From positions 1 through 59,503 of IMG/VR virus record IMGVR_UViG_3300009184_000049: a DNA stretch of 59,503 bases. One strand, given 5' to 3'. This document shows positions 16,001 through 54,991 of the stretch, piece by piece. Under the pieces are notes generated by a model. That model saw nothing but the letters and a program-made list of their open reading frames with translations. It was not told where the DNA came from and did no database searches. Position numbers and translations under genes: made by a program. This stretch comes from a virus. Its lineage: Duplodnaviria; Caudoviricetes. Each line of letters starts with the position of its first letter. Position 1 is the stretch's first letter.

Positions 16001-18835
16001 TCCATCATGGTCTATAAGAACAATTCTTCTTTTATCTGGAGATTTGCCAGGCTCATATTCATAGTCTTTGATGATACCCAACCCTTTTGCTCTTTCTAAT
16101 ATTTTTCTTGTAGACTCTGGATCTTTACTACCAAAACCTTCTTGAACGCTAAAACTTGCTATATTAGAGTGTAGCGCTTGCATCAAACCAAAAGTACGGG
16201 AAGATGCAATTTTAGGATTATTTGCTGGAATAGTTTCAAAAAGTGTTTTTCTTACAAGTTCATCATTTACATGAGTTGGTTGTTTCTTTGGGTCAGTTCC
16301 ACGAATAGTTTCTAGGATTAGTGAATCAATTGTTTTTGCATCAAAGGCATTAATACCAGATGGTTTCCATTTTTCTGGGCCTCGTTTAATCCACTCTTCT
16401 TCCCATTGTTGAAATGAGATACCTGTATCCTTTGACATGGCTTGGTTGTATCCAGATTTAAAGTCATATAGTAGTCCATCTTGAACTAAAATCTTTGGAT
16501 CAATACCTTGCATTAGCAGTATTTCTTTGTAAAGTCTTAAAGTCTTAGCCTTTTGTTCTGACATTGGTGTTTTTAAAATATCATCAATGTGCATTTTGTT
16601 TTTTGCACCGACATGGAACTTTTGTGTTTCTCCAGCCATTCTTGTTGACTTTACTGGAACCTCTTGAGCATCTCCCGTTCCTTTGTTATACCCCTGCATT
16701 TTTTTGCCAGCAATCATTGCACTAATTACTGGTCTATTTGCTGGATCTTGTGCAGCCTGTGCTGGAATAACTGCTTCTCCAGGGGTAAGCATTGAAAATA
16801 CGGTGTCTTGATTTCCAGTTCCAGGAACTCTTGTTGTTCCTGTAGAATATTTAAGTTTAGGCATTCTCTTACCAGCAGGTGGTCCAGTAAATCCTGCCTG
16901 GGCTGCAATGGCTCTTCTGTATGCATTTGCCAACATATTAACTGCTGTTGTTTCAGATGTAAATGTTTGATTAAGTTTTACGTGAACTTGATCAAGTGAT
17001 GCTGCTACTGCTGAGGCTTCTAGTTGTTCTTTAGTTAGATAATTTGTTTGCTCTCCCAAAACCTTGCTTGCACTACCAGTTCTGTTGTACATAGATTTCA
17101 TTCCTGCAAACATTTTAATTATATTGGCAACAGCGTTTGCAATCAAACCAAAAGTCATAAGAAGAATTGGCCCAACTCCTGCAACTGCAACTGTAAATAT
17201 AGTTAAAAACTTTTTACTACCTTCACCAAGATTATTAAATTTATCAAGAATCTTTCCAACAAACTCAACAATAGGTGTCAGTGCTTTTAAGAACTGTTCT
17301 CCTACTGGAGCAATAGCCAACTTAAGATCTTCCATTGACTTTTTAAATTTATATGTTGTTGTGTTTTGGATCTTATCTAATTCTCGCTGTGACAAAATTG
17401 CAAGTTCTTCTGTGGTTGCCTGCGTTAGTTGAAGCACTCTATTTGCTTGTGTACCCTGTGCTGTTACGTTTTGAAATAGTGTAGATAGTCTTGAGAACTG
17501 GAACTTGCCAAATAGTTGCTCAATAGCACGAGCACGGTTAAGAGGATCAAGAGTGTCAAGTGCTTGTGCAAACCCAACTACTGTTGCTTTAATGTCTCCT
17601 TTGTTTGCTTCAACAATTCCTTTAATATTAACTCCAAGATTTCCAAGGAAATCGCTTGCTTTCTTAGATGGATTAATTAAAGATGCAAGACCAGATTTAA
17701 GTGCGTTAGCACCTTCTGATGCATTGATTCCGCCTTCTTTCATTGCTGTAAGGAAAAATGCTAAGTCTTCTACGGATCCACCAAGTTGTTTTACAACTGG
17801 CCCAGCCTTTGGAATTGCTGTTGTTAAATCTTCAATAGATACAACAGTTTGGTTTTCAACTGCGTTAAGAAAATCAATTTTTCCTGCTAATTGATCTGCA
17901 GCAACCCCAAATGCATTTGTTACTGAAATAGTTGTTTCTAGTGCTTGTGCTTGATCTACTCCGCCAAGCACTGCAAGTCTTGTTGCTTGTGAAATTTGAG
18001 CAAGTAGTTCTGCTCCTTGTTTACCCATCGCTGCGGCATCTGCAGCCATCTTCATTGTGTCTTCTATTGCAACCCCATACTTTGTATACTCTGTTGCAAG
18101 TTTTTGAACTTGTTTAACCATAGCATCTGTTTCTGCTTGTGTTGTAAACATTTCTCCATACACACGCTTAAATCTAATTGCCTGTTCTTCAAGTTTCATA
18201 AATGTTTTAGAGGCTTGAATTCCAAGCATTGCTAGTGGAACTGTAAATCCAACCATTAACTGGCGACCAGCCCACTGAGTATTCTTACCAAAGTTTAGAA
18301 GGTTAGTTGATCCTTGTTTTAATAACTGATTAAGAAGTTGCTGTCTTTGTGCAGCAATGGCTGTCTGGGTACCCAGATTTTTCATATCAAGCGTTAGCGG
18401 TCTTACTGCAATTGCTTGTAGGGCTCCATTGGCCCCTCTACCCATTTTAATATACTGGGTTTGTATATCTTTTACACGCTCTCGTGCAACCTTATTTAAT
18501 GTTTCAAACTCAGACTTAAACAATCTACCAAAAGTTTTTGTAGCAGCGCCAGTGTATCTAAAGTATTCTCTTGAACTTAACTTGTTTCTTTCTAATGCAT
18601 CAGTAAAAGACTCTGTACTTGATGTTACTGTTTGCATTGATGCTTGGAATTTTCCAGTAGCATTTATGCTGTTTATCAAGTTCTGTGCTTGATTTGCTGC
18701 CACTGCTGATGCTGCAGTGCCAGACTTGGCCATCTGTGTATGGAAGGCTGATATTTGACGTTGTAGAAGTTTTAGACTTGCTAAAGCATCAGACGTATCA
18801 ATATTTACATGAATATTGGATTCTACATCAGCCAT
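10004..18835 (-). CDS. tape measure protein, TP901-type N-terminal domain, with inserted domains
   Basis: 2943 aa, Ala-rich and helical; AMKEGGINASEGANALKS TMP motif; hydrophobic segments; C-terminal DTVPAMLTPGEF; located after the tail chaperones. Confidence 0.95.
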   Translation of the reverse strand: MADVESNIHVNIDTSDALASLKLLQRQISAFHTQMAKSGTAASAVAANQAQNLINSINATGKFQASMQTVTSSTESFTDALERNKLSSREYFRYTGAATKTFGRLFKSEFETLNKVARERVKDIQTQYIKMGRGANGALQAIAVRPLTLDMKNLGTQTAIAAQRQQLLNQLLKQGSTNLLNFGKNTQWAGRQLMVGFTVPLAMLGIQASKTFMKLEEQAIRFKRVYGEMFTTQAETDAMVKQVQKLATEYTKYGVAIEDTMKMAADAAAMGKQGAELLAQISQATRLAVLGGVDQAQALETTISVTNAFGVAADQLAGKIDFLNAVENQTVVSIEDLTTAIPKAGPVVKQLGGSVEDLAFFLTAMKEGGINASEGANALKSGLASLINPSKKASDFLGNLGVNIKGIVEANKGDIKATVVGFAQALDTLDPLNRARAIEQLFGKFQFSRLSTLFQNVTAQGTQANRVLQLTQATTEELAILSQRELDKIQNTTTYKFKKSMEDLKLAIAPVGEQFLKALTPIVEFVGKILDKFNNLGEGSKKFLTIFTVAVAGVGPILLMTFGLIANAVANIIKMFAGMKSMYNRTGSASKVLGEQTNYLTKEQLEASAVAASLDQVHVKLNQTFTSETTAVNMLANAYRRAIAAQAGFTGPPAGKRMPKLKYSTGTTRVPGTGNQDTVFSMLTPGEAVIPAQAAQDPANRPVISAMIAGKKMQGYNKGTGDAQEVPVKSTRMAGETQKFHVGAKNKMHIDDILKTPMSEQKAKTLRLYKEILLMQGIDPKILVQDGLLYDFKSGYNQAMSKDTGISFQQWEEEWIKRGPEKWKPSGINAFDAKTIDSLILETIRGTDPKKQPTHVNDELVRKTLFETIPANNPKIASSRTFGLMQALHSNIASFSVQEGFGSKDPESTRKILERAKGLGIIKDYEYEPGKSPDKRRIVLIDHDGVKTSPFRGPSGDRLGTTSSIFSGFREAAFGERNKQLDQLEKDVKSSPLKGSKPETYSKQITPTSGRSFTALKGLGGVYEMADGKRVFVKPANSYREALAEQRATTIARNVHGLNAPEQTIKTILDPTDTKGKRRIVVLESPFDPRFDPEKMSNTFTKEEYIKQNVAAALRADKDLGKGNLSGNILADVGPAGVFGTASGSRDFVANLPSMEEQARINLGIDTPLPGGGRKKFFSEATAKIARSMTADEYHRAMINEINTSIPKLEKVIESFGITNPKEKKVYQAMLDRLKEGAKVDWRQLHKLHSSIAVKPDEVLQDTKTGKITKPKTAKLPSGVKSSAGSKDTRMTQEPAGKRIVQAPKRIGKVIIPGKANAPDATTLTTTSQSAAAASRTALYGGGTIDADAKSLRRQMEKRQRAEARTQAKAAASRTALYGQKVIDAEEKSFRRQREAQEKRSKLAERVAYRQSIISEKAAAEAAARTPSARLKTFARAKVDKYNTNKQARIEAGKNPRMGAAGALGVAAGAAMIGSMAPGKVGEISQKIMMPLMGLSMVLPMMKSPMSALAVGLVATVGSFVALRMAFDKAANEVLDQAEKFKGTTSAINSIAKFGGKVTASEQMDLKRKNSFSMLGPATGKTTYGEAYAQTAEGKALTARISEQNAKGQGGQAAKDLTGQLSASIMSGAMDMSQAKSLAMNAARQAGDMSIGIKVIGQLETLLGPNGERLDKEPLKVRLEMVAENSKNMKNNIKNINNANPITKLAGQKTMQIAGIGASALGGAAAGAGIGTFIGGPIGAAIGGGIGAAVGAAFGYFTSKKYVKQAAVLGAAAAVDAKIAMEQNKQMLDSLDMFYQKKIEQLRLQGKINEAEQMQATYIKERNTLTDAQGLLQADVVSQYNSAGGLQESMMNGMKKATTAKYKNDPNQLAYVDVVNQQAGDLRKSGAINSGQEFLIQAKMASGDIPPAVFRSLLQMATDNKDIAPKMMNIITKFSGATSESIGVAAQNILGSNGVVNKTVQTKFVTRVEAFEKDSDALDFAKNIIKLNNLNAVIPSDVMVSYYTDPKNKDAYEKLNKILDTIEGSKDLTAKIVYEIMPEIKGTAAFDEAYFNTLTEDQQKVYTTTISSLINVPEPQIIESEDFKAWRKETGPKGGAGVTGSKSFIVQKYIEAQGNKAVTDGVAVGVKAPVTADASSTGNKVQASPLDDLVKKLRDVRMNQIKVTEGWSASRKALDKLFGGKKTIDVFSGIENDIRKLGGSQDFIELIVGMDPKEYEKRKNSLFKFDNKGNIISLKNDAKNIQEAMNSIAMGDWNSSMEAESQALADQGNAFSRIANLGVPVADAYDLITNKTIAQAIANGVNDKTLKTLIERYKGLTEVQEKSAAIQGVKTDIAQFKKDRIQEARIKSQYDPTTAFAISSDDNLKLMENTISTAQAKVDSLIKKGATRSQINAAQGDLNTLVTDFNERLSQLKNTIGFMQDMFDKGYSNAMQSFDTQETALNIQFKLDTKGNDKTIREAQDQIAAIQYKVDDKEAALKSIADQEEKINEKYDERISALDEIEKANSAISSQQKGQLTLAEALTSGDIAAAARAAQDMRSQAAADALTKQKDAVEQSRKYELAGVQAYDPVTKTYRTRKELEADIKKLQDEIFDLEEKKIEPAEELNRLRQIQLDKDVAGLTVLGRTKDAWEAIKNQVDLALIKSASFVDSMGLAISTQSKLIAAYAAETGGKNGAFNNQGAFVQGATNPETNPATDASIIAAADAATAAALAAAAAAEAAARSAAATPKTSTGNVGNIDAVNQIVNNQTTSLLDSIKSGSAPAFTPSQIANQMADTLMKNPAALAALGGAAGVASSARYTGQAIQYAAQQAAIEKAASTAAAIKQGTSGGSYYDRRTGGLATGGLVPKYFAAGGFARGTDTVPAMLTPGEFIMSKYAVDAHGIDTMKSINSGQPTGGAVYNNTYTLTVNAKTDANPNEIAKAVMSTIKQVDDRRVRGVVLNGR

Positions 18836-34869: not shown

Positions 34870-35583
34870 TTACTTAAAGTTTTTCTTTTGCCAAAACTTT
34901 AATCTATAACCATTTTGGAAAGTAGATCTAGTTTTACTTCTTTGCTCTTCTACTTTTTTTGCTGAAAAGTTTTTGTCTAATTCCATTGTCCAATCTTCTC
35001 TCTTAAAAGGAAAAACCTGAAACATTGGAGTTCCTTGTTTAATAGTTCCTTTAAAATTCTTTTTTACTAAAAATGATAAATGACCATCAGTAAAATAGTT
35101 ATCAGTATCAACTACAGCATCGATAGCCTTTAGGGGTGATGAAGGTTGATGGATTGGGTTTGTAAAAAATGTACTATATCCTTTATCAGTTTGAACCATC
35201 CAAGTAGGATGAATTCTTAAAATTTGACTACAATAAATATCTTTATCAATAGGTAGATGAGATACTTGTTCTGGAAGATGTTCGGCTATCAGTGCTGAAT
35301 AATGCTTACTCATTCCAGCAGGTAATTGAAGATTAATTTTTCCATCAGTTGTATCTATATATATATCGCATGGAACTTTTAAAAGGTATCCCATAGACAT
35401 TGCATCAAAAAAAGGTTGACATTTTTTTACAGTTAAATGAAGTATACCTCTATCAGGTATATCAGTTCCAGAAATGGCTGGTTGTTCTTTGTACCAGGAG
35501 GGAATATTTTTTGTTGCTAATTCTGGTTCTGGAACAATATTTAATAGTTGCGGATACATCTGTAAAAATCTAATAGTATTCAT
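34870..35583 (-). CDS. hypothetical protein, possibly dUTPase-like/DUF6065-type fold
   Basis: TVKKC.PFFDAM..GY, VVDTD, IKQGTPMFQVFPFKR. Confidence 0.5.
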   Translation of the reverse strand: MNTIRFLQMYPQLLNIVPEPELATKNIPSWYKEQPAISGTDIPDRGILHLTVKKCQPFFDAMSMGYLLKVPCDIYIDTTDGKINLQLPAGMSKHYSALIAEHLPEQVSHLPIDKDIYCSQILRIHPTWMVQTDKGYSTFFTNPIHQPSSPLKAIDAVVDTDNYFTDGHLSFLVKKNFKGTIKQGTPMFQVFPFKREDWTMELDKNFSAKKVEEQRSKTRSTFQNGYRLKFWQKKNFK

Positions 35584-36531: not shown

Positions 36532-37860
36532 TTATTCTTCTGTTTGGTAACCGTCAAAGACTAAGAAATGCTCTGTATAGAACATATCATAAGGTTCACA
36601 GTTAATAGAAACAACTTGATGAGGGATATATGAAACTATTAATTCAGTTATAGGTATCCAAGTGTTTGTATCTGTAGACCATAATTCGTCTGTATCTAAA
36701 AGATTAATAGATGCAATCATTTTAGCAACATTGTCTCTTTTTACAAGCAAGAAGTGAGATCCTGAATAAAATTCACCATTTATTGATACAGATTCTTCTG
36801 CTTCTGTAGTTCCTATATTCATAATTGTTGTTTCTTTATTAGGCAAAAGATTTAATGTTTCTGGATTACCTGTCCAGTTTTCCATTTGTTCTTTTGTAAA
36901 GTTTGCTCCTAGTTCAGGAATTTCTGTAGATACAAGAATATCTCCTGCTTTAAGATTTTGTGCTTGTGTATATCCATCTGTTGTTAATACTAATGTTTCT
37001 ACACTTACAGATTTTCCACGATAACCACCAAAACCAAAGTCATATGCTCCGAATGCACCGAATGCTCCGAAGGCACCAAAAGCACCGAAGGCACCGAATG
37101 CACCAAAAGCACCAAAAGCACCAAAAGCACCAAAAGCACCGAAGGCACCGAATGCGCCAAAAGCACCGAATGCACCGAATGCACCGAAGGCACCGAAGGC
37201 ACCGAAGGCACCGAAGGCACCAAAGGCACCAAATGCTCCGAAGGGTGCAAATGAGAATGTTGTGGTGACAGATCCTGATTGAGAAGATGTTCCTGAGTTA
37301 CCATTTGCATTTGTAGCATAAACATTATATGTCTGAGCAGTTCCTTGTTCTTGTCCAACGCTTACAGATGTTCCTGATGTATCTCCAGATTTTCCATCAT
37401 CAGATGTCCAATGATAATTAGTAATTGCTGAGCCACCATTTGCTGGTGCTGTCCATGAAACCGAATCTGTTCCTGCTGATGGAGAAGATGCAGATGGGGC
37501 ACTAGGTGTTGCTGGAACAGTGGTTACTGTTACTGAGTTAGATGCAGCAGATGCTTCACCTGTTCCTTCTGCGTTAGTTCCTACTACTGTAATAGTTGTA
37601 ACAGCACCTGATCCAAATCCAGTAATCGTTATTGGAGAAGATGAACCTGTTGCTGAGTGTGTTGCATTATGTACGTTGCAATATCCTGATGCTGTATAAG
37701 ATGTAGCAGCATTTGGACCTGTGGGAGTAAATGTTACAGTAACTGCACCATTGTTATATGGCCGTCCTGTTCCAACATCTGTTGCTGTTCCAATAGTTGG
37801 TGCATATGGTTTCAAGAAGTCATTTGCTCCTTGACTCATTCTACCTGCTTGCTTTGACAT
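36532..37860 (-). CDS. two FN3 domains, (GAF)21 repeat and C-terminal Hint (intein-like) domain
   Basis: VSWTAPANGGSAITNY FN3; KSVSVETLVLTTDG...LKAGD Hint block A; SGSH block B; VVSINCEPYDMFYTEHFLVFD blocks F/G. Confidence 0.85.
   Translation of the reverse strand: MSKQAGRMSQGANDFLKPYAPTIGTATDVGTGRPYNNGAVTVTFTPTGPNAATSYTASGYCNVHNATHSATGSSSPITITGFGSGAVTTITVVGTNAEGTGEASAASNSVTVTTVPATPSAPSASSPSAGTDSVSWTAPANGGSAITNYHWTSDDGKSGDTSGTSVSVGQEQGTAQTYNVYATNANGNSGTSSQSGSVTTTFSFAPFGAFGAFGAFGAFGAFGAFGAFGAFGAFGAFGAFGAFGAFGAFGAFGAFGAFGAFGAFGAFGAFGAYDFGFGGYRGKSVSVETLVLTTDGYTQAQNLKAGDILVSTEIPELGANFTKEQMENWTGNPETLNLLPNKETTIMNIGTTEAEESVSINGEFYSGSHFLLVKRDNVAKMIASINLLDTDELWSTDTNTWIPITELIVSYIPHQVVSINCEPYDMFYTEHFLVFDGYQTEE
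37042..37242 (-). repeat. 9-bp tandem repeat encoding (Gly-Ala-Phe)x21 plus GAY
   Basis: Units counted by hand; third codon positions vary. Confidence 0.95.
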
Positions 37861-44466: not shown

Positions 44467-45003
44467 TCACGACAGGCCGTCTTTAAGAGCGCCCCAAGTG
44501 CCATTTCCTTTTGTTTGAACAATTATTAAACCTGTTGCTCCCTGAACTGCAACAACTGCAACATATCTTGCTGGGCCAGTGGATGGTCGACCTTCAACAA
44601 GGGCTCCATTTGAATCTATATAAACCTTTGTTCCAGAAACACCAAGAGAGGATGTGTTCATCTCCAAGACTCCAGAAACAACAACAACTCCATTTTCATT
44701 ATTTGCAATAGTTGATTGAACTAGTCCGAGTATTGGAACATCTGGATTATGACCTACACTAGATGGATTATATTTTGCTACCGTTGGAACTCCAGAAACA
44801 CTTCCATTAATAAATACGGGAGTTCCAGTAGGAAGTGAAACTCCTGATATATTTCTAACTGCTGAAGATACTCCAGTCATTCCGAGTGGTGGTAATATAT
44901 TATTTAAAGCATCAACCAATACTTTAAAGTCTCCGTGTACATTCACGGGATCTGAAGCAATAGGATACTTCATAGTAGGATAATTAGATGATGATACAGG
45001 CAT
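44467..45003 (-). CDS. putative virion protein
   Basis: MKYPIASDPVNVHGDFK fibre-anchor-like N-terminus. Confidence 0.5.
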   Translation of the reverse strand: MPVSSSNYPTMKYPIASDPVNVHGDFKVLVDALNNILPPLGMTGVSSAVRNISGVSLPTGTPVFINGSVSGVPTVAKYNPSSVGHNPDVPILGLVQSTIANNENGVVVVSGVLEMNTSSLGVSGTKVYIDSNGALVEGRPSTGPARYVAVVAVQGATGLIIVQTKGNGTWGALKDGLS

Positions 45004-45025
45004 AATGTTTATTATACACCCAGAT

Positions 45026-45055
45026 TTGACTTTTAGCCAAAAATTATGTTATACT
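45026..45055 (+). promoter_or_regulatory. sigma-A-type promoter TTGACT-N18-TATACT with extended -10
   Basis: Upstream of the only clear plus-strand gene in the structural region. Confidence 0.7.
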
Positions 45056-45102
45056 TAGTAGTAACACCTACCAAGGTGTTATTGTTTTCTAAGGAGGAAA
45101 CT

Positions 45103-45663
45103 ATGATTAAATTTATCGAAAGAAACAAAGAGATCATTAGCACACTCAGTATCGTAGCACTAATAGCGGTTACTTCTAACGCTAGTGCTTCTTCAGATCT
45201 TGATACTAAAAACAATCTTAGCCTGGAACAGGCTCAGACATTGGAAACCGCCTCGAAAGAGGTTTTTTTGGTTTCTAAAGCAAAAAAACTAGAGAGTTTT
45301 GAGAATAAGGTTTCTCTGACTGATTTAGAACTAAAGGAACTGCTTTCACTAGTAGGCTTCAGGGGTAGAGACCTTGTTGTGGCTTGGGCAGTTGCTAAGA
45401 AAGAGTCTAATGGGCGACCATTGGCTTTTAATGGCAATCATAAGACTGGTGACTCGTCTTATGGTATGTTTCAAATCAATATGATTGACGACCTTGGTCC
45501 TGATCGTAGAGATAAGTTTGACATTAATTCTAATGCCGAATTATTTAATCCCGTCAAGAATGCAGAAATCGCCTACTACATGACAAATGGTGGAAGCGAT
45601 TGGTCTTCTTGGAAAGGCATTACGCCTAAGACCAGGGAATGGATGAGTAAATTTCCTAAGTAG
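45103..45663 (+). CDS. secreted lysozyme-like lytic transglycosylase
   Basis: AAGGAGG SD; signal peptide ending ASA; AKKES catalytic Glu; GMFQIN, LFNPVKNA, WSSW. Confidence 0.85.
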   Translation: MIKFIERNKEIISTLSIVALIAVTSNASASSDLDTKNNLSLEQAQTLETASKEVFLVSKAKKLESFENKVSLTDLELKELLSLVGFRGRDLVVAWAVAKKESNGRPLAFNGNHKTGDSSYGMFQINMIDDLGPDRRDKFDINSNAELFNPVKNAEIAYYMTNGGSDWSSWKGITPKTREWMSKFPK

Positions 45664-45679
45664 TCTATAAAAATAAATT

Positions 45680-45708
45680 ACCCCCTAGAGAAATCTGGGG
45701 GGTTTTTA
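45680..45708. terminator. bidirectional terminator between convergent genes
   Basis: ACCCCCTAGA/TCTGGGGGGT stem flanked by A- and T-runs. Confidence 0.8.
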
Positions 45709-46662
45709 TTTATCTTGTCTTGGAGGCAAGCCAAGCGGTCTGGGCTCTACAATTATATGAGAGACATAGTCTGGAATAAACTCTGTATATTTTGTACTTA
45801 TTCCAGACTCTTTAAAAAAATTGTAACTTTTTTCTTTTGAAACATCTAGGCTGCCAGACATTAGGCTAGAAAGCCTATTTGTTGCTTCCTCTACATGCTT
45901 CCAATAGAATTCTTTTCTTCCATCTGCCCACGGTCTTAAGGTTTCTCTTGTTATGGAACCATTTGCCTGGCGATGAGACTGGTTGTGAAACACATCTCTT
46001 GTTCCAATAGAATATATCTTCCAGTCTTTTGCATATGTTCTTAGCGACAAAGCAAACTCTTCTGTGTTAAAAGATTCTTTGCCACTTATTCCAACTTCAT
46101 CAACCCATTGCTTGGGTGCAAAAAGATAACAGCATGTTGCCCAGTATGAACGCACAATTTTATCTATTTCTAAAACACTATATCCTGGAAATTTAAATCC
46201 TGGAACTAGTTCAGAAAAGTAAGAACCATACATTGATACCTTAGATGCTGCATTAAAATTAATTGATCCATCTGACCTTATTTCGTAATCTGCTGGAGCA
46301 TAAGCAATAATAAATTTTTCATTATTAGTATTTAACTTTTCATATCTTTTAATAGCAAGAATATCCCACCATAAAGATGCCTGTGTATGAGAGTCAAACT
46401 GTATAAAATAATCATAATCTACATCAACTTGTGTTGCTAAGTTTCTAGCCCAACATACTCCACCCCTATACTCTGATAAATCAAAATGTCTGTAAAGTAA
46501 TTGCTCTTTTGGTATAAATGATAGATCATATTCTTTTTTGTCTTCTGAAACGATAGAAAAATATAAACTATCTTTATTTTTTGCTTGATCCCATAATGAA
46601 AATACTGTAGAATAAAATTCTGGATCGCAATAGTTTGCAATACTAACCAATATCTTTTTCAT
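45706..46662 (-). CDS. GT60-like glycosyltransferase (Skp1 hydroxyproline GlcNAc-transferase family)
   Basis: ILVSIANYCDPE, GVCWARNL, YFIQFDSH, EEFALSLR..W, matching the IFVSIASYRD/G..AR/QIDSH/GEE..S.R signature. Confidence 0.8.
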   Translation of the reverse strand: MKKILVSIANYCDPEFYSTVFSLWDQAKNKDSLYFSIVSEDKKEYDLSFIPKEQLLYRHFDLSEYRGGVCWARNLATQVDVDYDYFIQFDSHTQASLWWDILAIKRYEKLNTNNEKFIIAYAPADYEIRSDGSINFNAASKVSMYGSYFSELVPGFKFPGYSVLEIDKIVRSYWATCCYLFAPKQWVDEVGISGKESFNTEEFALSLRTYAKDWKIYSIGTRDVFHNQSHRQANGSITRETLRPWADGRKEFYWKHVEEATNRLSSLMSGSLDVSKEKSYNFFKESGISTKYTEFIPDYVSHIIVEPRPLGLPPRQDK

Positions 46663-47207
46663 TTTGATTTTCTAATATGAGTGTGGAGATATTGTGGTCC
46701 TTCTTTAAACCACCAATGATCTGGTTCTGCAAAGTGAAAAAATACCATAGCAACATGATTGTTTTCTGGATTGGGAAACTCTTCACGCCAATGCATTTGA
46801 TCATTTCCATAATATGCTAAGGCTTGATTAGGATAAAGACAATAATTTTTGTCTTCTACCCATAAATCCCAGGGCTCATTTTGATAAACACACATATCAA
46901 GAGTATATGTACATGCGTTGTCGTCTTTGTGTTTGTATAAACTTGGTGAAGGGTCTTGTCCTTCATAGTGTGCAAACAATGTATATGTTGGAAGCAAAGT
47001 TTTGCTATCAAATGTTTCTCTTGCAGTTCTTATTAATTTGTCTGCTAATTCTGCTAAGATTGGAAGTTCACCATCTCCAACTGAGTACCTGCTAAACCCA
47101 GGATCAAAACCAAAACTTTTAGGTTTGTCTAAATATGTTAGGAGCCTTGCATAATCTTCAGGACTTAGTAAATCATTTACAACTACTGGGTCCTTCATCG
47201 CATCCAA
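46659..47207 (-). CDS. 2OG-Fe(II) oxygenase
   Basis: HKD...HWR...FFHF. Confidence 0.8.
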   Translation of the reverse strand: MDAMKDPVVVNDLLSPEDYARLLTYLDKPKSFGFDPGFSRYSVGDGELPILAELADKLIRTARETFDSKTLLPTYTLFAHYEGQDPSPSLYKHKDDNACTYTLDMCVYQNEPWDLWVEDKNYCLYPNQALAYYGNDQMHWREEFPNPENNHVAMVFFHFAEPDHWWFKEGPQYLHTHIRKSK

Positions 47208-47791
47208 CTAACTACGGCATACCTTTCGCCCTCAATGACTGGCAATACTGAGTGGTTATAAACATATGTTGATGGAAATACTATCATCTGGTTTGCTTTT
47301 GGTTTAAAAGTAATATTAAATCTAGGGAATAGTATTTCACCACCCAAATAATTATCATTTATGTAGTAAGTTGTAGAAATTCTTCTGTGATAGTCTTGGT
47401 GATCGTCAATATGGTTTGTAAATTTTTGACCAACTCCATATTTTAATACTGCGTAGGCGTCATGCCACGGTGCTGCTACGCCATAATGATTTTTATAATC
47501 TTTTTCAACTACATCAAAATTTTCAAAGAATAAATTACCCAATGTTGAATTAAAAGAAGATTGAAAACTAGTAAAGTCTTCAGATATTGCTCCATAATAA
47601 GGAACACCAAAAGTATTTGTGTCTCTTGAATTTGTATTTACACCAGGTTTCTCACTATCTTTTACTTCTGCTGGAACCCATGGAATTTTTGCAGAGACAA
47701 GTCCCTCTTCAATGTCTTCACATAGGGTTTCGCTATTAGGGATTACATTACTATAAACTATTATTCCTGGTGCTATTTCTTCTTTTATCAT
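47195..47791 (-). CDS. prolyl 4-hydroxylase-like 2OG-Fe(II) oxygenase
   Basis: LKY..GQ.F..HID...RRIS..YYINDNY.GGE..FP...HSV.PV.EGERY. Confidence 0.85.
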   Translation of the reverse strand: MIKEEIAPGIIVYSNVIPNSETLCEDIEEGLVSAKIPWVPAEVKDSEKPGVNTNSRDTNTFGVPYYGAISEDFTSFQSSFNSTLGNLFFENFDVVEKDYKNHYGVAAPWHDAYAVLKYGVGQKFTNHIDDHQDYHRRISTTYYINDNYLGGEILFPRFNITFKPKANQMIVFPSTYVYNHSVLPVIEGERYAVVSWMR

Positions 47792-47792
47792 T

Positions 47793-48035
47793 TTACCATT
47801 TTTCTAAAGGACAGGTTGCTAGTTCTAGTTTTGTTTTTACTGCCATAAAGCAACCGCATTTTTTACATTGTTTGGTTAGTTTAATTAGTTCTGGACAAGA
47901 CTGACAAATGCTATATCTTTCTTTTGCTTTTTCTTCATCTGCCCACTCTGTATTAGGATTTACAAGATCCCAAGGTCTTGTTTCTCCAAGCATTCTCTTG
48001 TATTTTTCTATAGGACTTTCTTTTTTATCGGACAC
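47793..48035 (-). CDS. small Cys-rich putative metal-binding protein
   Basis: RYSICQSC...CKKCGCF..VKTKL..ATCPL.KW. Confidence 0.7.
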   Translation of the reverse strand: MSDKKESPIEKYKRMLGETRPWDLVNPNTEWADEEKAKERYSICQSCPELIKLTKQCKKCGCFMAVKTKLELATCPLEKW

Positions 48036-48036
48036 G

Positions 48037-48831
48037 CTACTGCCTTTCTAGATTGTAAACATACTCGTAAAGTTCAAAGTCAATACTATTTAAATCTAAA
48101 AACTTTTCTATATCTTTGTCTGATAAAGATAATTTAAGTGTATCAGTTGTATAAACTTTATTTTCAAATTTAACAGATGAATCGTTAATATTAAATATTT
48201 CAGTATTTATAGATTTTGTTTCTAGTTCTGGATAATTAACATTATACCAATCAACTAACCTATTTATAAAAAGTGAAACATTTAAAGTTGTATTAACTAT
48301 AGTAAATTCATCAATATATGATTTAACCAGTTCTGGCGTAATCTCAACATCTTTTAAATACCATTGCTTTGATCTAGTTATATAGTCTGACTCTCCATCA
48401 ATAGGTAAATCTTTAAACATATTTTTTTCTGGCTCAGAACATATAAACTTTGATTGTATATTTCTGTGAGAAGTATAAAATGGATCTTCAAATAGATAAT
48501 ACTTTAAACCTGACTCTATTGTTTTTAACGATAGGTACTCTTCTCTATGGCCAAGAACTTTCTCATAAATGTATAAAAAATTACTAATGGCTCGATCTAA
48601 AGGGTCCCTAACAAGTGTTGCTACCGAAAGATTTTCAATTTTTGAAATTGGATATCTTCCTAGATGGCCTTGAATAAAAGCATAATCGGACGAAACATCT
48701 CCGTGTGGTGGTGGTGATGGTGGATACTTAGATAAGTTATTTTCTTTTAAAAATTGTGCAAAATTAACACCTACTGTCATTCCAGCAGTTTTTGGTATAT
48801 GTAAAAAATACAAAGTTTTATTTATTGTCAT
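48037..48831 (-). CDS. PAPS-dependent sulfotransferase (carbohydrate sulfotransferase-like)
   Basis: 5'-PSB FLHIPKTAG; 3'-PB RDPLDRAIS; C-terminal N..D..LY. Confidence 0.85.
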   Translation of the reverse strand: MTINKTLYFLHIPKTAGMTVGVNFAQFLKENNLSKYPPSPPPHGDVSSDYAFIQGHLGRYPISKIENLSVATLVRDPLDRAISNFLYIYEKVLGHREEYLSLKTIESGLKYYLFEDPFYTSHRNIQSKFICSEPEKNMFKDLPIDGESDYITRSKQWYLKDVEITPELVKSYIDEFTIVNTTLNVSLFINRLVDWYNVNYPELETKSINTEIFNINDSSVKFENKVYTTDTLKLSLSDKDIEKFLDLNSIDFELYEYVYNLERQ

Positions 48832-48855
48832 TTTATCTCCTATCTATTAAGTATA

Positions 48856-51366
48856 TCATGTTGAGGTATATCCTGAGAAACCGCCACAGCCATCATAAAC
48901 ACAATTATTATATCCGCATGGAACGATGCTTATTGGACACCAGTAACAGTTTGTTGCACAAGTATTTCCTGCGGGTGCGGGTGCGACAGGTGCTGGAGCA
49001 ACTGGAGCAACTGGGGCGGGTGCAACAGGTGCTGGTGCATGGTCTCCATCACATCTATTTGGACAGCCATTAGGGGTCCAACATAAAGTTCCATTTCCGT
49101 ATGGTCCACAAGCACCTCCAGATAGTGCTGGATCGCAAGGGCTGCAATCTAATGCTACAGGTGTAGGTGCTGTTGGTGTAGGTGCAACAGGTGTAGGTGC
49201 AACTGGGGTAGGTGCATTTGGATTTGTACAAGATGAACCAGATGCTCCATTTTCTACACAGTTAACTCCTGTACCGCTACCGTTAGATGGGCAAGGGCTT
49301 GATGGATTTGGAGCATCTCCTGATGCACAATAATGCCATCCAGAAAGAAGTGAAGGATAAGAAGCAGTTGGTGTAGGAGCAACTGGTGTAGGGGCAACTG
49401 GTGTAGGTGCGGGGGTACATAGTGGTCCTGATGCAGTTCCATCTTTACAGTCACCATTAATTACATTTGCTTGAGTACATGGGCTTGCTGGGTTAGGAAC
49501 GTCACCATTTGTACAATAACGTAGTCCAGAAAGTAATGTTGGATAAGAAGCAGTTGGTGTAGGAGCAACTGGTGTAGGACATGCTGCTTGAGCATTAGCC
49601 ACAGCATTTTGATAGTTTGTAGTTGCTCCTGATTCTTGGCATCCTGCTATACTTCTATAATCTGATCTAGCAGTATTATTGTTAGGTCCATCAACAACTA
49701 ATGCTTCACCGCTACAGCATCCATAAGCGTAGTAGGTTGTGGCTGTTGGTGTAGGAGCAACAGGTGTAGGCGCTGTTGGTGTAGGAGCAACAGGTGTAGG
49801 CGCTGTTGGTGTAGGTGTTGATATTGGTCTACATTCTTCAAATCTATCTGAATAAACATATCCATCTGGACATGTTGGTGTAGGAGCAACAGGTGTAGGC
49901 GCTGTTGGTGTAGGTGTTGTCACACAACTTGATGGAGCAACTCTTGCAGAACTTGTTGAGCAGTCAATACTTGTTGCACCTATGTTGTTAAGAAGAGTGT
50001 TATAGACTGAGCATGCTTCATTAATGTTTGTAGTTAGAACGCTATCTGCATTTATAGAGAAACTTTCAACAACTGGTGCGCCCTGGTAGCAATATGAAAG
50101 ATAAACTGTTCCAGGGTTTACTACTTGCACTGTTGGACAACCAGAACCATAGCCAAGTTGTGAAACTATCTGTTCACTACTTAATCCTTGAGTGCTTGTT
50201 GTTCCAGTGTTTACAGTTGAACTTGATGGCTGTGTTCCATATGCTCCACCTCTCATAGCAGGAAATACTGGATCACAATAAGTATAAATGTCATATGTTG
50301 TTTGAGCAACTGGCGTTGGTGTTGGGGTATAGGGAACTCCATCACTATTGCAACATATTGTTGGATCAAAGCCACATGGATCTGAGAAACTTCCGCTAGT
50401 GTCTCCTGGTGGTGGACACACTAATGTAGGCGTTGGTGTTGGCGCAACTGGTGTTGGCGCAACTGGTGTTGGCGCAACTGGTGTTGGCGCAACTGGTGTG
50501 GGTGCTACTGGTGTTGGTGCAACTGGTGTTGGTGCTACAGGAGTAGGGGCAACAGGTGTAGGCGCTACAGGTGTTGGAGCAACAGGTGTTGGAGCAACAG
50601 GTGTAGGGGCAACAGGTGTAACTGGAGTTACTACGTTAAGTAAGTTTCCAAAAAAAAACCATGTATTGGTGTCTATTTTAACTAATGTGCCTTTTGAATA
50701 CTGTCCATCTAAAGACCGTATGTTAGATTTGCTATTAACTGATACTGCATTAGTTTCTGGATTAACAGTTACTGATCCCGCTCCTGTTTGAATTATATCA
50801 ATTGAATACCCTACTGGAATTTCTACTGAAGCATTTAATGGAAGTGTTACAGTCATTGGATTAGAAGAATACAAAATAGCAGTTTTGCCAACATCACTTG
50901 CAGATAAAATAAAATTTTCTGTTTTTGTTATAATTGTTCCAGCATTTGCAAGTCTTGGCTCAACATCAAATCTTTCGTCAACAGAGTTCCAATCAATAGC
51001 AGTTCCAGCAAGATTTGAATATTCTCCTGTAACACCGCTTACTGCTGATGAAATTGCTGTATTTACATATGTTTGTGTTGCAAGGTTTGCTGTGTTTGCT
51101 ATTCCGTGAATATTTGTTGTATCTGCTTCGTGAGCAGCAAGGGCTGCTGTAGCAGCAGTATCTGCATCTTTAAGGTTTTGAAGGTGTTTTGCTATTGAAG
51201 GTGTTACAAGATTTGCGGTATTTGTATTAGAACCATCATAAGTATAAGACCCATAGTGATAAAGTTTGAGGGCTGCTTGAATATCTGCTGCATCTGAAAG
51301 ACCAGGAACTTTTGCAGGGAAAAGACCAGTACCATTAACGGTATTATCAATGTTTTCTGCTGCCAT
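48856..51366 (-). CDS. virion fibre-like protein with mucin/extensin-like (PVAPT)n tracts and Cys-rich modules
   Basis: N-terminus shares HEADTTNIHGIANT and fibre-tip modules with other fibres; C-terminal two-thirds alternate Pro/Thr tracts with Cys-rich domains. Confidence 0.8.
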   Translation of the reverse strand: MAAENIDNTVNGTGLFPAKVPGLSDAADIQAALKLYHYGSYTYDGSNTNTANLVTPSIAKHLQNLKDADTAATAALAAHEADTTNIHGIANTANLATQTYVNTAISSAVSGVTGEYSNLAGTAIDWNSVDERFDVEPRLANAGTIITKTENFILSASDVGKTAILYSSNPMTVTLPLNASVEIPVGYSIDIIQTGAGSVTVNPETNAVSVNSKSNIRSLDGQYSKGTLVKIDTNTWFFFGNLLNVVTPVTPVAPTPVAPTPVAPTPVAPTPVAPTPVAPTPVAPTPVAPTPVAPTPVAPTPVAPTPVAPTPTPTLVCPPPGDTSGSFSDPCGFDPTICCNSDGVPYTPTPTPVAQTTYDIYTYCDPVFPAMRGGAYGTQPSSSTVNTGTTSTQGLSSEQIVSQLGYGSGCPTVQVVNPGTVYLSYCYQGAPVVESFSINADSVLTTNINEACSVYNTLLNNIGATSIDCSTSSARVAPSSCVTTPTPTAPTPVAPTPTCPDGYVYSDRFEECRPISTPTPTAPTPVAPTPTAPTPVAPTPTATTYYAYGCCSGEALVVDGPNNNTARSDYRSIAGCQESGATTNYQNAVANAQAACPTPVAPTPTASYPTLLSGLRYCTNGDVPNPASPCTQANVINGDCKDGTASGPLCTPAPTPVAPTPVAPTPTASYPSLLSGWHYCASGDAPNPSSPCPSNGSGTGVNCVENGASGSSCTNPNAPTPVAPTPVAPTPTAPTPVALDCSPCDPALSGGACGPYGNGTLCWTPNGCPNRCDGDHAPAPVAPAPVAPVAPAPVAPAPAGNTCATNCYWCPISIVPCGYNNCVYDGCGGFSGYTST
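50435..50620 (-). repeat. 15-bp tandem repeat encoding (PVAPT)x12
   Basis: Units counted by hand; shorter tracts occur between about 48970 and 49915. Confidence 0.95.
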
Positions 51367-51385
51367 TATAGATCACCCTGTTTCA

Positions 51386-51991
51386 TTATACCACCGTAAT
51401 AAAAAGATGAACCATCTTCTCACCAGACATGGGTGCCCAGTTACCGTTCAAGAATTCTACTCCTTGTATTTCAAGTGGTAAGGCTAAAAAGCCTTGAGTA
51501 GTGATTAATTCTTTAATTATAAGGTTTGTTGCTAAAGGACCAGACGCTGATGATGATGATATTGAATACTGAATATTAAACCTAGAAGAACTTACGGTTC
51601 CCTCTCCTACATCATATATATCTGTAACATTGATTGGTGGAATTGTTATTTTACCACTTACTGGTGTTAGTGGTCCTTTTACTTCTGAATAAAAATTTGT
51701 TTTTAGGCTAAGTAATGGAGTCCATTGTGTTCCAGTTGGTCCTGCAATTCTTTGAAATACTGTTTTATATGTTGAAGAAGATGGATTGTAATCAATTGCA
51801 ATATCTAATGCTTGAATTCCTTCTGGAATATTTAATATTTCAGCATGAACGCTTGCATCTTGTGGGTTTCCATTCGATCCTACAATAATACTTCCACGAT
51901 CACCTTGTGGTCCAAAATCCAAATCAAGGTTTACTGTTTCTGGACCGCCAAAAACTGTAAGGTCATCGTTTGATAACAGTATGTCTGCCAA
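51386..51991 (-). CDS. putative virion protein with a short collagen-like motif
   Basis: GPQGDRGS; structural context. Confidence 0.55.
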   Translation of the reverse strand: MADILLSNDDLTVFGGPETVNLDLDFGPQGDRGSIIVGSNGNPQDASVHAEILNIPEGIQALDIAIDYNPSSSTYKTVFQRIAGPTGTQWTPLLSLKTNFYSEVKGPLTPVSGKITIPPINVTDIYDVGEGTVSSSRFNIQYSISSSSASGPLATNLIIKELITTQGFLALPLEIQGVEFLNGNWAPMSGEKMVHLFITVV

Positions 51992-51992
51992 T

Positions 51993-52424
51993 TTATGCTC
52001 CAGTAACTTGATCAGTTATTGTTATTTTACCTGTAAGTAATGTGTGAACAAGTGAATATTGTCCAGTTCCTGCAGCACCTGCTGGCTTAGTAACTTCTAC
52101 ATCGTATACATATTCTGTTCCAGCAATAAGTGTTGTTGAGTCTTCTGGCCTAATTGCACATTGAACAAAAGTATTATCATCTGATATTCTTGCAAAGCAA
52201 TTAACTTTAACTCCAGCAGATCCTCTAATATTTGCAATTGTAAACCTTGCACTGTCATATGGGGCAACCGTATCAGTAACATCGTCTATTGCTGTAGTAT
52301 TATTTGATGCAATCTGATATGCTGAAAGATTAAAAACGGTTCCATCGTTCTTTTTTGGGTAGATACGAAACTCAAAAGTATCACCCTTATAGTAGTTAAA
52401 GTCATAGGTCGCTGGAAATGCCAT
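51993..52424 (-). CDS. BppU N-terminal-like Ig-fold protein
   Basis: YYKGDT...YVYDVEV...LLTGKITI..QVT; TGGTATAAT-N6-ATG. Confidence 0.6.
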   Translation of the reverse strand: MAFPATYDFNYYKGDTFEFRIYPKKNDGTVFNLSAYQIASNNTTAIDDVTDTVAPYDSARFTIANIRGSAGVKVNCFARISDDNTFVQCAIRPEDSTTLIAGTEYVYDVEVTKPAGAAGTGQYSLVHTLLTGKITITDQVTGA

Positions 52425-52431
52425 GGTTTTA

Positions 52432-53160
52432 TTATACCACGCTGACGTATATAGATTTGATAATTACTGATGCATCATAATCTGTACGTATTTGAGGGAT
52501 TGCCCCATTACCCCAAATTTTTTGATTTTCAATAAATACATGTTGAGTTACAGTAATTGGATATGTGTGCTGATATTTGAGGGAACCAATAAATTGAGCA
52601 ATATCTAACTGGCTATTAGCAGAATAAGTTCTAACCCATACCTCTGTATTACTGCTATGGGTTGTTAGTTCAAAACTGTAGGTTATAAAAACTTGAGAGC
52701 CTTCTTTTAACCCTTTAAAATTAAAAGATCTAGAGTGATCATTCCACAAAGATGTACAACCTTTTGGAATATATTTTTCATTTGAAAGTCCTTCAGAATT
52801 TAAGAATACTGTTACCCATCCATCATCTCCTTCTGAAATTCCAAGTTTTATTGGTTTTTCAATTTTGTTAGTATAAGAAGCCCACCCTGCTTGTTGACCT
52901 GAAGAGGATAGACTGCTAAGTCCATCTGCCCCTTTTGGTCCCTTTTCACCTTTTGGTCCAATGTTTCCCGTGAAACCTTGTTCTCCTTTTTCTCCATCTT
53001 TCCCATCTCTACCTGCTGGTCCTTGAGGACCTTGGGGTCCAGGAACTGGAAGAAATGATAGTGTGTTTTCTTGATAAGGAGATGCTTGTGTTTGTTCAAC
53101 TTGTGCAGCATAAGAAGATTTTTTTGAACCAGGAAAATCCATAGATTTGGAAGCAGTCAT
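52432..53160 (-). CDS. collagen-repeat protein with beta-sandwich C-terminal head
   Basis: About 14 Gly-X-Y triplets (GPQGPQGPAGRDG...). Confidence 0.75.
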   Translation of the reverse strand: MTASKSMDFPGSKKSSYAAQVEQTQASPYQENTLSFLPVPGPQGPQGPAGRDGKDGEKGEQGFTGNIGPKGEKGPKGADGLSSLSSSGQQAGWASYTNKIEKPIKLGISEGDDGWVTVFLNSEGLSNEKYIPKGCTSLWNDHSRSFNFKGLKEGSQVFITYSFELTTHSSNTEVWVRTYSANSQLDIAQFIGSLKYQHTYPITVTQHVFIENQKIWGNGAIPQIRTDYDASVIIKSIYVSVV

Positions 53161-54220: not shown

Positions 54221-54991
54221 ATGAAAACTAGTATACTTAATACATTGGAGTATTCTAAGAATTTAATTATATCTCCTGACATGGATGGTTTTATGTCCGC
54301 AAAATTACTAGAGCGTTTTAACGGTTCGAAAATAGTGGGTTCATATGATAAAAATATTTTATGTTTGGCCGACGGAATAGATCCAGAGAAATGTTTGTTT
54401 GTTGACTGTGACATGAATAGACAAGAGTTTGTATCTCTTGGAAATCATATGCGACTAATAGAAGACGGTATGTCAGTTGAGTCGTTTAATCCAAATGTTC
54501 ACTTTGGCGTGACGACATATAGCGACAAGTTTCCTTACGCAACCGCCTTTTTGATAAGTTTCGCAATAGAGGCTAACCTTTCCGAACAAGACCTTATACG
54601 CATGGCTTTCGCTGACTCAACTCTCAAGAACATGGAGAAATACAGCGATAACATGCGAAACTGGTCTAAACGGATGGATCATGATGCAGTTCGTTATATA
54701 ATAGACAATTCGGACATTGCAAAAAAGAATGATGCACAGGCAAGGTTTGATTATGTAGACCAAGCCTTTGTATCTAAAAGATACGGCAAGCAACGATATC
54801 TGGATACCCTTAATAACGCCCTACAAAGCCAGGAGATGAAGTTTGAGCCACTAGTCCAGGGTATGAAGTATGTATGTGACAAAGTTGGCATAGAAACCCT
54901 TATAAGGTATAATAGAGATATCATCTCTTATGCAGAGATATTTACAGGAGAATATTCTGTTACATACGACCAAGAAAAGGAATGGACATGA
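54221..54991 (+). CDS. DHH-phosphoesterase-like protein (degenerate)
   Basis: SPDMDG (DxDG), FVD, GNH where DHH is expected, NPN. Confidence 0.45.
   Translation: MKTSILNTLEYSKNLIISPDMDGFMSAKLLERFNGSKIVGSYDKNILCLADGIDPEKCLFVDCDMNRQEFVSLGNHMRLIEDGMSVESFNPNVHFGVTTYSDKFPYATAFLISFAIEANLSEQDLIRMAFADSTLKNMEKYSDNMRNWSKRMDHDAVRYIIDNSDIAKKNDAQARFDYVDQAFVSKRYGKQRYLDTLNNALQSQEMKFEPLVQGMKYVCDKVGIETLIRYNRDIISYAEIFTGEYSVTYDQEKEWT

Follow-up and report, generated by a model that had tools for sequence, protein, structure and literature searches.

The viral DNA stretch analyzed here (IMG/VR record IMGVR_UViG_3300009184_000049, positions 1 to 59,503, assigned to Caudoviricetes; hereafter the window) carries a six-gene cassette that appears to encode both a phage tail fiber and enzymes that decorate it. 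A gene for a proline-rich (Pro-rich) fiber is followed by genes for a sulfotransferase, a small protein with six cysteines (the six-Cys protein), a 2-oxoglutarate (2OG)/Fe(II) oxygenase resembling prolyl 4-hydroxylase (P4H), a second oxygenase of the same fold, and a glycosyltransferase (GT) of Pfam family PF11397, which corresponds to CAZy family GT60. We put the probability that this cassette post-translationally modifies the phage's own fiber, roughly in the manner described below, at about 0.55. The identities of the genes, the active-site residues of the enzymes, the structure of the operon, its synteny with a Pro-rich open reading frame (ORF), and the adjoining slot of variable glycan genes are established here.

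Organization of the cassette

The six minus-strand genes are co-oriented and nearly contiguous, running from position 51366 to 45706 (table 1). Their spacing, computed from ORF coordinates, is operon-like, with gaps of 24, 1, and 1 nt followed by overlaps of 13 and 4 nt. The cassette lies within the structural module, between the tail-fiber genes and a lysozyme gene, and a hairpin separates its last gene, that of the GT60-type enzyme, from the convergent lysozyme gene. A prior sequence-only reading of this DNA had described six co-oriented genes with these identities ending at a terminator; all six ORFs and the hairpin lie where it had placed them. The three families it had named, PF11397, 2OG-FeII_Oxy_3, and Sulfotransfer_2, all score above their cut-offs, the last of them marginally.

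The fiber is 13.9% Pro and has 36 Cys. Its N-terminal domain of 244 residues is Cys-free and tail-protein-like: residues 137-244 match PHROG tail or minor-tail families (1e-6 to 1e-8), and residues 106-242 are ~30% identical to minor tail proteins of Gordonia phages, which account for 141 of the 154 matching records. Beyond this domain, eight Pro-rich linkers (PVAPT/PTAPT/APAPV) alternate with eight small modules that hold 4, 6, 2, 4, 4, 4, 6, and 6 Cys, and the even number in each suggests disulfide-knotted beads on a string. There are 20 PVAPT units in total, 12 of them uninterrupted. The linkers hold 50 Thr, and the last one (residues 777-799) is without any Ser or Thr. Among the 47 listed ORFs of the window, nine Pro-rich tracts were found; eight are in the fiber and one is in the other 46 ORFs. 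That sole other tract lies at residues 109-129 of a 442-aa tail-fiber-like protein (36532-37860, minus strand), in its FN3-like, Ser/Thr-rich N-terminus; the same protein has ~23 tandem Phe-Gly-Ala tripeptides (FGAFGA...), a repeat that scores as Collagen below the cut-off (1.6e-4).

Identities of the enzymes

The P4H-like protein matches 2OG-FeII_Oxy_3 well (8e-17, 62.4 bits, cut-off 27). When its family profile was compared with the PDB at E <= 0.01, all 46 matches were prolyl or PKHD-type hydroxylases, the best being the P4H of Bacillus anthracis (2e-11), with the P4H of PBCV-1 (5c5t, 6e-5) and Dictyostelium PhyA (6t8m) also matched. The iron triad of H127, D129, and H180 is invariant in 23 homologs and R190 is nearly so; this arginine aligns with a lysine of the B. 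anthracis enzyme and may bind the C5-carboxylate of 2OG. The sole addition from NCBIfam was a sub-threshold match of this protein to an Fe2+ dioxygenase.

The second oxygenase has no sequence match in Pfam, NCBIfam, or the PDB. Its structural model (predicted local distance difference test score, pLDDT, of 91.1) has the double-stranded beta-helix of the 2OG-oxygenase fold and matches at least 374 PDB entries at E <= 0.001; all of those listed are 2OG oxygenases, with query-normalized TM-scores (TMq) of 0.52-0.68. Entries 5c5t and 6t8m are among the relatives of both oxygenases, and the H93-x-D95...H139 motif of the second one is invariant. This protein is abundant in metagenomes, with homologs in at least 599 protein clusters and on 419 viral-contig stretches. 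A predicted complex of the two oxygenases scored 0.00, a value that counts neither for nor against binding.

The glycosyltransferase matches PF11397 (named GlcNAc, that is, N-acetylglucosamine) with an E value of 5.1e-22 and 79.3 bits (cut-off 21) over profile positions 96-277 and an N-terminal stretch, and all 30 of the nearest named Atlas clusters carry the same family. D90-S91-H92 and H226 are invariant in 10 homologs, down to 31% identity; in GT-A enzymes a D-x-H/D-x-D motif binds metal, and these residues are predicted to do so here. Neither the protein nor its profile matched any PDB sequence, and a search of phage records with the protein returned just two Xanthomonas jumbo phages, at 22% identity. 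The closest relatives of the window have, upstream of the fiber module, a second PF11397 paralog (L003:641-1609, L004:602-1570, minus strand; 2.9e-33; 29% identical to the GT60-type enzyme of the window) for which the window has no counterpart.

The match of the sulfotransferase to Sulfotransfer_2 is marginal (4e-5, 24.3 bits, cut-off 22) and covers N-terminal residues 6-87 only; of 55 relatives, 8 have a precomputed PF03567 assignment. A set of 24 sequences, the most distant at 30% identity, nevertheless shows no variation at H11-I-P-K-T-x-G17, R75-x-P77...S83, and H122. Sulfotransferases that use 3'-phosphoadenosine 5'-phosphosulfate (PAPS) have a 5'-phosphosulfate loop (PKxG/T) and a 3'-phosphate motif (R-x-x-x-x-R-x-x-S), and the first two of these conserved stretches correspond to them. 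With the structural model (pLDDT 90.8), the best Foldseek match is heparan sulfate 2-O-sulfotransferase (2.2e-5), followed by 3-O- and 6-O-sulfotransferases; the best TMq values are modest (0.42-0.51), and every match listed is a sulfotransferase or retinol dehydratase, which binds 3'-phosphoadenosine 5'-phosphate. A sequence search of the PDB gave no usable match, and one of phage records gave none. A 256-aa ORF at 54221-54991 was considered as a sulfotransferase paralog and rejected (hhalign probability of 0.4%).

The 80-aa protein has six invariant Cys (CxxC...CxxCxC...C), scores 26 bits against DUF6171, just under the cut-off of 27, and probably binds metal. Its gene adjoins oxygenases or a GT in most related loci. 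In a phage-like region of a pond metagenome-assembled genome (L102:7780-8888), a six-Cys protein 51% identical to that of the window is encoded directly upstream of a GT60-like gene, without an oxygenase. Because this locus pairs the two genes in that way, the partner of the six-Cys protein may be the transferase and not the hydroxylases.

Table 1. Features of the cassette and its surroundings, with positions in the window unless loci are named
Feature	Position	Strand	Remarks
Pro-rich fiber (presumed substrate)	48856-51366	-	836 aa
(PVAPT)12 linker of the fiber, its longest, residues 245-314	50434-50619	-	15-bp tandem repeat, 12.4 copies
Sulfotransferase-like protein, carbohydrate-type, PAPS-dependent	48037-48831	-	264 aa; accessory gene of the cassette
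Six-Cys small protein, DUF6171-like	47793-48035	-	80 aa
P4H-like 2OG/Fe(II) oxygenase	47195-47791	-	198 aa
Second oxygenase, 2OG/Fe(II) oxygenase fold	46659-47207	-	182 aa; conserved core partner of the P4H-like gene
PF11397 (CAZy GT60-type) glycosyltransferase	45706-46662	-	318 aa; sole occupant of the variable slot in the window
Bidirectional terminator-like hairpin, end of the operon	45680-45703	.	GC-rich, 10-bp stem, T-runs on both strands
SLT_3 lysozyme-like gene, convergent	45046-45663	+	downstream boundary of the cassette, conserved in most relatives
Collagen-like protein	52432-53160	-	three genes upstream of the fiber; 14 G-X-Y triplets; conserved in many relatives
P4H-like/GT60-like gene pairs of SAR86	L108, L110, L114, L115, L118, L119, L121, L124, L125, L127, L130, L143

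Conservation of the cassette and its variable slot

Searches for relatives yielded 17 viral loci with the GT60-type enzyme and 419 confirmed stretches with the second oxygenase, 80 of which were kept for analysis of synteny. We define a Pro-rich ORF as one of at least 120 aa with at least 10% Pro, and count it when it is within three genes upstream, at loci with at least 1.5 kb of upstream sequence. Gene order across the 80 loci is nearly constant and consists of a Pro-rich ORF, in some cases a small ORF, the six-Cys gene, the P4H-like gene, the second oxygenase gene, one to five variable genes, and the convergent lysozyme gene. The P4H-like and second oxygenase genes adjoin each other in 78 of the 80. 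A Pro-rich ORF is upstream in 53 of 57 informative loci, compared to 3 of 967 among other ORFs of at least 120 aa. Two of the four exceptions have one further upstream (L071, L087) and in the other two none was detected (L032, L090). The arrangement is kept in ~10 loci whose upstream structural genes are unlike those of the window, and also in a distant GT60 clade (L013-L019), in which the Pro-rich protein carries FN3 domains. Close homologs of the sulfotransferase (at least 38% identity, 22 loci) sit in cassettes of this type: 18 of the 22 lie within three genes of a Pro-rich or fiber ORF, and in 21 an oxygenase gene is no more than four genes away.

Fibers in relatives vary in other ways. 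Those of L009, L010, L055, and L084 have a PFFPPFFPP repeat at the C-terminal end, beside (TP)n linkers. In the distant clade, the Pro-rich protein (L015:5940-7772, L017:5090-6067) has two FN3 domains and Cys-rich modules; its C-terminal region starts with Cys, ends with His-Asn, and weakly matches Intein_splicing (0.019), and may be a Hint-like self-processing region. The same clade encodes a weakly DUF6065-like protein (L013:1767-2495) between the second oxygenase and the six-Cys protein, and the window has a similar ORF beside ribonucleotide reductase (34870-35583, minus strand).

The slot between the second oxygenase and the lysozyme is occupied by 219 proteins that form 20 clusters. Families include NAD-dependent sugar epimerase/dehydratases (several clusters), PF11397 GTs (12 loci), JmjC/cupin proteins, a methyltransferase, a carbamoyltransferase, and radical SAM/SPASM proteins, as well as several without any match; in the window, the GT60-type gene is alone. 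Three of the unmatched families (A4, A5, and A6) have no PDB relative by profile and no match in Pfam or PHROGs, though they may carry HxRRGD-like or DxD-like transferase motifs. The contents of the slot resemble the gene set expected of a glycan-building locus.

This conservation bears on whether the genes are functionally linked at all. The linkers could be plain flexible spacers and the five genes unrelated auxiliaries lodged between fiber and lysis genes, given that many different genes come and go in the variable slot that precedes the lysozyme. But the genes of the slot are a non-random set of sugar-nucleotide and transferase families, the oxygenase pair remains fixed while the slot varies, and the background of Pro-rich ORFs is only the 3 in 967 given above. 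We consider the lack of any link highly improbable.

Proposed mechanism and target residue

We suggest that this late-operon cassette decorates the tail fiber in the cytoplasm of the host. That the fiber is the substrate, that its Pro are hydroxylated, which sugar is added, and that sulfate is placed on that sugar are all inferred from the genes. In the fiber, X-Pro linkers would connect small disulfide-knotted modules into a chain. The P4H-like oxygenase, together with the second 2OG oxygenase, would hydroxylate prolines of the linkers, and the GT60-type enzyme would add an N-acetylhexosamine (HexNAc), probably GlcNAc, onto the new hydroxyls or onto neighboring Thr. The sulfotransferase would then sulfate the HexNAc. 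The predicted product is a stiff, hydrophilic, negatively charged, and protease-resistant fiber. In relatives, the same oxygenase core in combination with other sugar-nucleotide and transferase genes would give each phage its own glycan. More tentatively, this may be the trait of a widespread lineage of actinophages with genomes of ~105-116 kb, in which tail fibers with O-glycosylated hydroxyproline (Hyp), sulfated in some members, are built by a dedicated two-oxygenase module that makes the acceptor sites on X-Pro linkers and by an exchangeable slot, and the same logic may extend to SAR86 bacteria.

Linker composition is informative about the residue that is modified. In 58 Pro-rich proteins, linkers are 37-58% Pro and 0-53% Thr; counted over Pro-rich proteins and not linkers alone, Thr precedes 51% of the prolines. 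One linker of L076 has ~125 residues of Ala/Val/Ile-Pro with 2 Thr and no Ser, and L065 and L078 are similar. The six-Cys gene, the two oxygenase genes, and a slot of five genes are retained at all three loci. Because Thr-poor linkers precede the same oxygenases, Pro is favored as the target. What the linkers have in common is Pro, and not Thr, as would be expected if a conserved core of prolyl hydroxylases makes the acceptor; this is suggestive and not proof.

The main rival explanation is that glycosylation is mucin-type, with the GT60-type enzyme placing HexNAc on Thr or Ser of the linkers, and the oxygenases either only stiffening polyproline-II linkers by hydroxylation or acting elsewhere. 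Trypanosomatid GT60 enzymes act on Thr-rich mucins, and the frequency of Thr before Pro as well as the 50 Thr in linkers of the window are consistent with such a role. So are the GT60-type loci that lack a P4H-like gene, 7 of the 15 informative ones, and the pond locus with six-Cys and GT60-like genes but no oxygenase. Conversely, some cassettes (L076, L065, L078) follow linkers that are nearly free of Ser and Thr, the last linker of the window is itself free of both, no part of the cassette is better conserved than the oxygenase pair (78 of 80 loci), and P4H-like and GT60-like genes are paired in SAR86. Overall, we view mucin-type glycosylation as unlikely, though it is the alternative to which the evidence gives the most room.

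Hydroxylation and glycosylation of the Pro-rich fiber also has to be weighed against a number of observations that do not favor it. Most linkers, including those of the window, are Thr-rich and ordinary O-glycosylation of Thr would suffice. Most loci are from one or a few related lineages, so counts are not independent events, and the conserved neighborhood partly reflects descent and not repeated selection. The seven informative GT60-type loci without a P4H-like gene (L005-L011) are left with a divergent second oxygenase alone (43-49% identical), yet their linkers are of the PVAPT or TP kind. The GT60 gene is one of ~20 gene families that fill the slot, and the membership of its product in GT60 comes from the Pfam model alone. 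The sulfotransferase is found with the GT60-type enzyme or the second oxygenase in the window and in only 3 of 97 loci fetched. Among 58 loci with distant sulfotransferases (less than 38% identity), 40 have P4H-like neighbors, but a Pro-rich ORF lies within three genes in just one, and the six-Cys gene is absent from all. Oxygenase and GT genes of a cyanophage, gene pairs of SAR86, and a GT60-like gene of phage XacN1, all described below, likewise have no Pro-rich neighbor. Last, a review (PMC7019647) gives the role of the viral P4H of PBCV-1 as unknown and hydroxyproline as undetected in its virions.

These findings divide the sequence-only reading. Its gene identities and layout are upheld, as is the expectation that these enzymes co-occur with Pro-rich fibers across phages, which is borne out in this lineage and includes the group with a different upstream structural module. 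Against a fixed pathway of three steps stand the loci without a P4H-like gene, the rarity of the sulfotransferase, and the many families that can fill the slot besides GT60. Grazer evasion and mimicry, roles it had suggested for the fiber, are speculative. It had also held that occurrence of the enzymes apart from Pro-rich proteins would count against it: within this lineage they are co-located, but distant homologs of the sulfotransferase, oxygenases, and GT60-type enzyme occur without a Pro-rich neighbor.

Homologs beyond the cassette and other candidate substrates

Gene 301 of cyanophage S-SCSM2R (L020:6263-7546) encodes a single 427-aa protein in which both oxygenase types are fused; the second oxygenase aligns with its residues 57-163 (E 1e-10), and the P4H-like protein with its residues 247-427 (E 1e-22). 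PHROG 3531 has the same two-domain pattern. The gene is followed by three GT genes, an aminotransferase-like gene, and a radical SAM gene, with no Pro-rich ORF within the 14.5-kb locus. Many cyanophage records label such oxygenases "ferrochelatase." Viral contigs L205-L264 have a distant sulfotransferase gene (30-37% identical) followed by one to four P4H-like paralogs, without a Pro-rich ORF or six-Cys gene nearby.

In SAR86, a divergent P4H-like/GT60-like gene pair is present in 12 of 80 bacterial loci (table 1), with P4H-like proteins of 205-224 aa and GT60-like proteins of ~330-350 aa (split in L130), and no Pro-rich ORF nearby. Its occurrence links the two families independently of the phage cassette, and the pair may be a bacterial counterpart of the PhyA/Gnt1 pairing of protists. 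The GT60-like gene of XacN1 adjoins a carbamoyltransferase gene and replication genes, with those for DNA polymerase and RNase H nearby, and has no Pro-rich neighbor.

Such contexts raise the possibility that the enzymes act on glycans of the host envelope or on phage DNA, in superinfection exclusion or anti-restriction, and that adjacency to the fiber gene is merely inherited order. These are the usual readings of phage GTs, and PMC10202952 proposes envelope-glycan and DNA roles for those of actinophages. The location of the XacN1 gene, the distant sulfotransferase and oxygenase clusters without Pro-rich neighbors, and the shared ancestry of the loci are all compatible with them. However, the nearest solved relatives of the P4H-like oxygenase are protein prolyl hydroxylases (46 of 46) and not nucleic-acid oxygenases, and the cassette is inside the tail-fiber module and translationally coupled to the fiber gene. 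In addition, the Pro-rich ORF stays adjacent where surrounding structural genes differ, and the cluster in the window has no methyltransferase or TET-type partner. With its relatives among prolyl hydroxylases and its coupling to the fiber gene, the cassette is less likely to act on DNA or the host envelope, and we regard such action as distinctly improbable.

A different protein could be the substrate of the P4H-like enzyme, and the collagen-like protein encoded upstream of the fiber is a candidate. It matches Pfam Collagen (5.5e-8, residues 40-80) and has a homolog in many loci. B. anthracis P4H, the closest solved P4H relative, acts on collagen-like peptides. Collagen P4Hs, though, hydroxylate Pro at the Y position, and the 14 G-X-Y triplets of this protein have five Pro at X and none at Y. 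Only 37 of the 80 loci have an ORF that reaches six or more G-X-Y triplets, and none of 12 loci of other types has one, although these keep both oxygenases and the Pro-rich ORF. Because it has no Y-position Pro and such an ORF is absent from 43 of the 80 loci, the collagen-like protein is a poor candidate, and it is very unlikely to be hydroxylated in place of the Pro-rich fiber.

Genome context and probable host

The window is a 59.5-kb viral contig with an estimated completeness of ~54% and G+C content of 32-43%. It includes a siphovirus structural module, with a major capsid-like gene and genes for a portal, a protease, a tape measure, a minor tail protein of 1441 aa, and a run of tail fibers. 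The tape measure protein has 2943 aa (10004-18835, minus strand), which implies a very long tail. A near-identity DNA search with positions 45000-52000 against 50,697 phage records found no match.

Portals of ~130-kb Streptomyces phages share 46% identity with that of the window. Four of five larger related viral records have whiB, including two that are complete (106 and 116 kb, with terminal repeats); the window itself has neither whiB nor a tRNA gene. In PMC10202952, whiB is described as a key indicator of actinophages. The host is probably an actinobacterium, because of the similarity of the portal, the presence of whiB in related records, and the resemblance of the fiber N-terminus to minor tail proteins of actinophages.

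Significance and comparison with known systems

Phage-encoded decoration of virions is known from few cases, and the cassette would be a new form of virion glycosylation. In the literature covered, which lacked most subscription journals, no description was found of prolyl hydroxylation, GT60 glycosylation, or a fiber sulfation pathway in phages, and every database relative examined carries the name "hypothetical protein." If the proposal is correct, this is the first bacteriophage-encoded pathway of Hyp-linked protein glycosylation and the first of glycoprotein sulfation, and a modification regarded as characteristic of plants, algae, and protists enters phage biology. The exchangeable slot would give each phage its own virion "serotype," and the same P4H-GT60 logic would act on other proteins in SAR86 bacteria. 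That the slot varies points to an arms race over the surface of the virion, in which adsorption, resistance to proteases, aggregation, or being recognized by grazers or host defenses could be at stake. The enzymes are small, soluble, and cytoplasmic, and could be tools for making Hyp-glycosylated or sulfated repeat proteins in bacteria. Aquatic phages have many "2OG-Fe(II) oxygenase" genes that lack an explanation, and the proposal offers a concrete and testable candidate substrate for them.

Mycobacteriophages are one point of comparison. In work by Freeman et al. in 2023 (Cell Host Microbe), C-termini of their capsid and tail-tube proteins were reportedly found to be O-glycosylated on Ser/Thr. 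As there, the window has GT genes among structural genes of a likely actinobacterial phage, and its own virion proteins would be modified in the cytoplasm. Unlike in mycobacteriophages, the neighbor is a Pro-rich, Cys-knotted fiber, the core is a pair of 2OG oxygenases, the GT is of PF11397, and a sulfotransferase is added.

In the Skp1 pathway of Dictyostelium and Toxoplasma, the prolyl 4-hydroxylase PhyA makes Hyp and the GT60 enzyme Gnt1 glycosylates it. The likeness is in the enzyme pairing only, a cytoplasmic P4H-family oxygenase with a PF11397/GT60 transferase. That pathway modifies a single Pro of Skp1 and serves in oxygen sensing, whereas there are hundreds of candidate Pro in structural repeats here. 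The cassette also has a second oxygenase and a six-Cys protein but no Skp1, and its conserved neighbor is the Pro-rich fiber.

Among cultured phages, the nearest homologs of both oxygenases are the oxygenase or "ferrochelatase" genes of cyanomyoviruses with adjacent GT genes (S-SCSM2R genes 301-304; PMC12801897). There the oxygenases are fused and 25-30% identical to those of the window, and the cluster has no Pro-rich ORF in its locus. PBCV-1 also encodes a small viral P4H (vCPH, PDB 5c5t) in a genome that encodes Pro-rich repeats (Eriksson et al. 1999, as cited in PMC7019647). It is, however, a virus of eukaryotes and has neither an adjacent substrate gene nor a GT cassette.

Extensins and arabinogalactan proteins of plants and algae (PMC7960765 and PMC5371791) are a further parallel. 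They share its Ala-Pro, Thr-Pro, Val-Pro, and Ser-Pro repeats with the fiber, and in them P4H activity followed by O-glycosylation of Hyp produces rod-like linkers. These plant and algal Hyp-rich glycoproteins are made in the secretory pathway by other GT families and carry arabinose and galactose, whereas the phage fiber would be modified by cytoplasmic enzymes of bacterial-viral type, with a PF11397 transferase.

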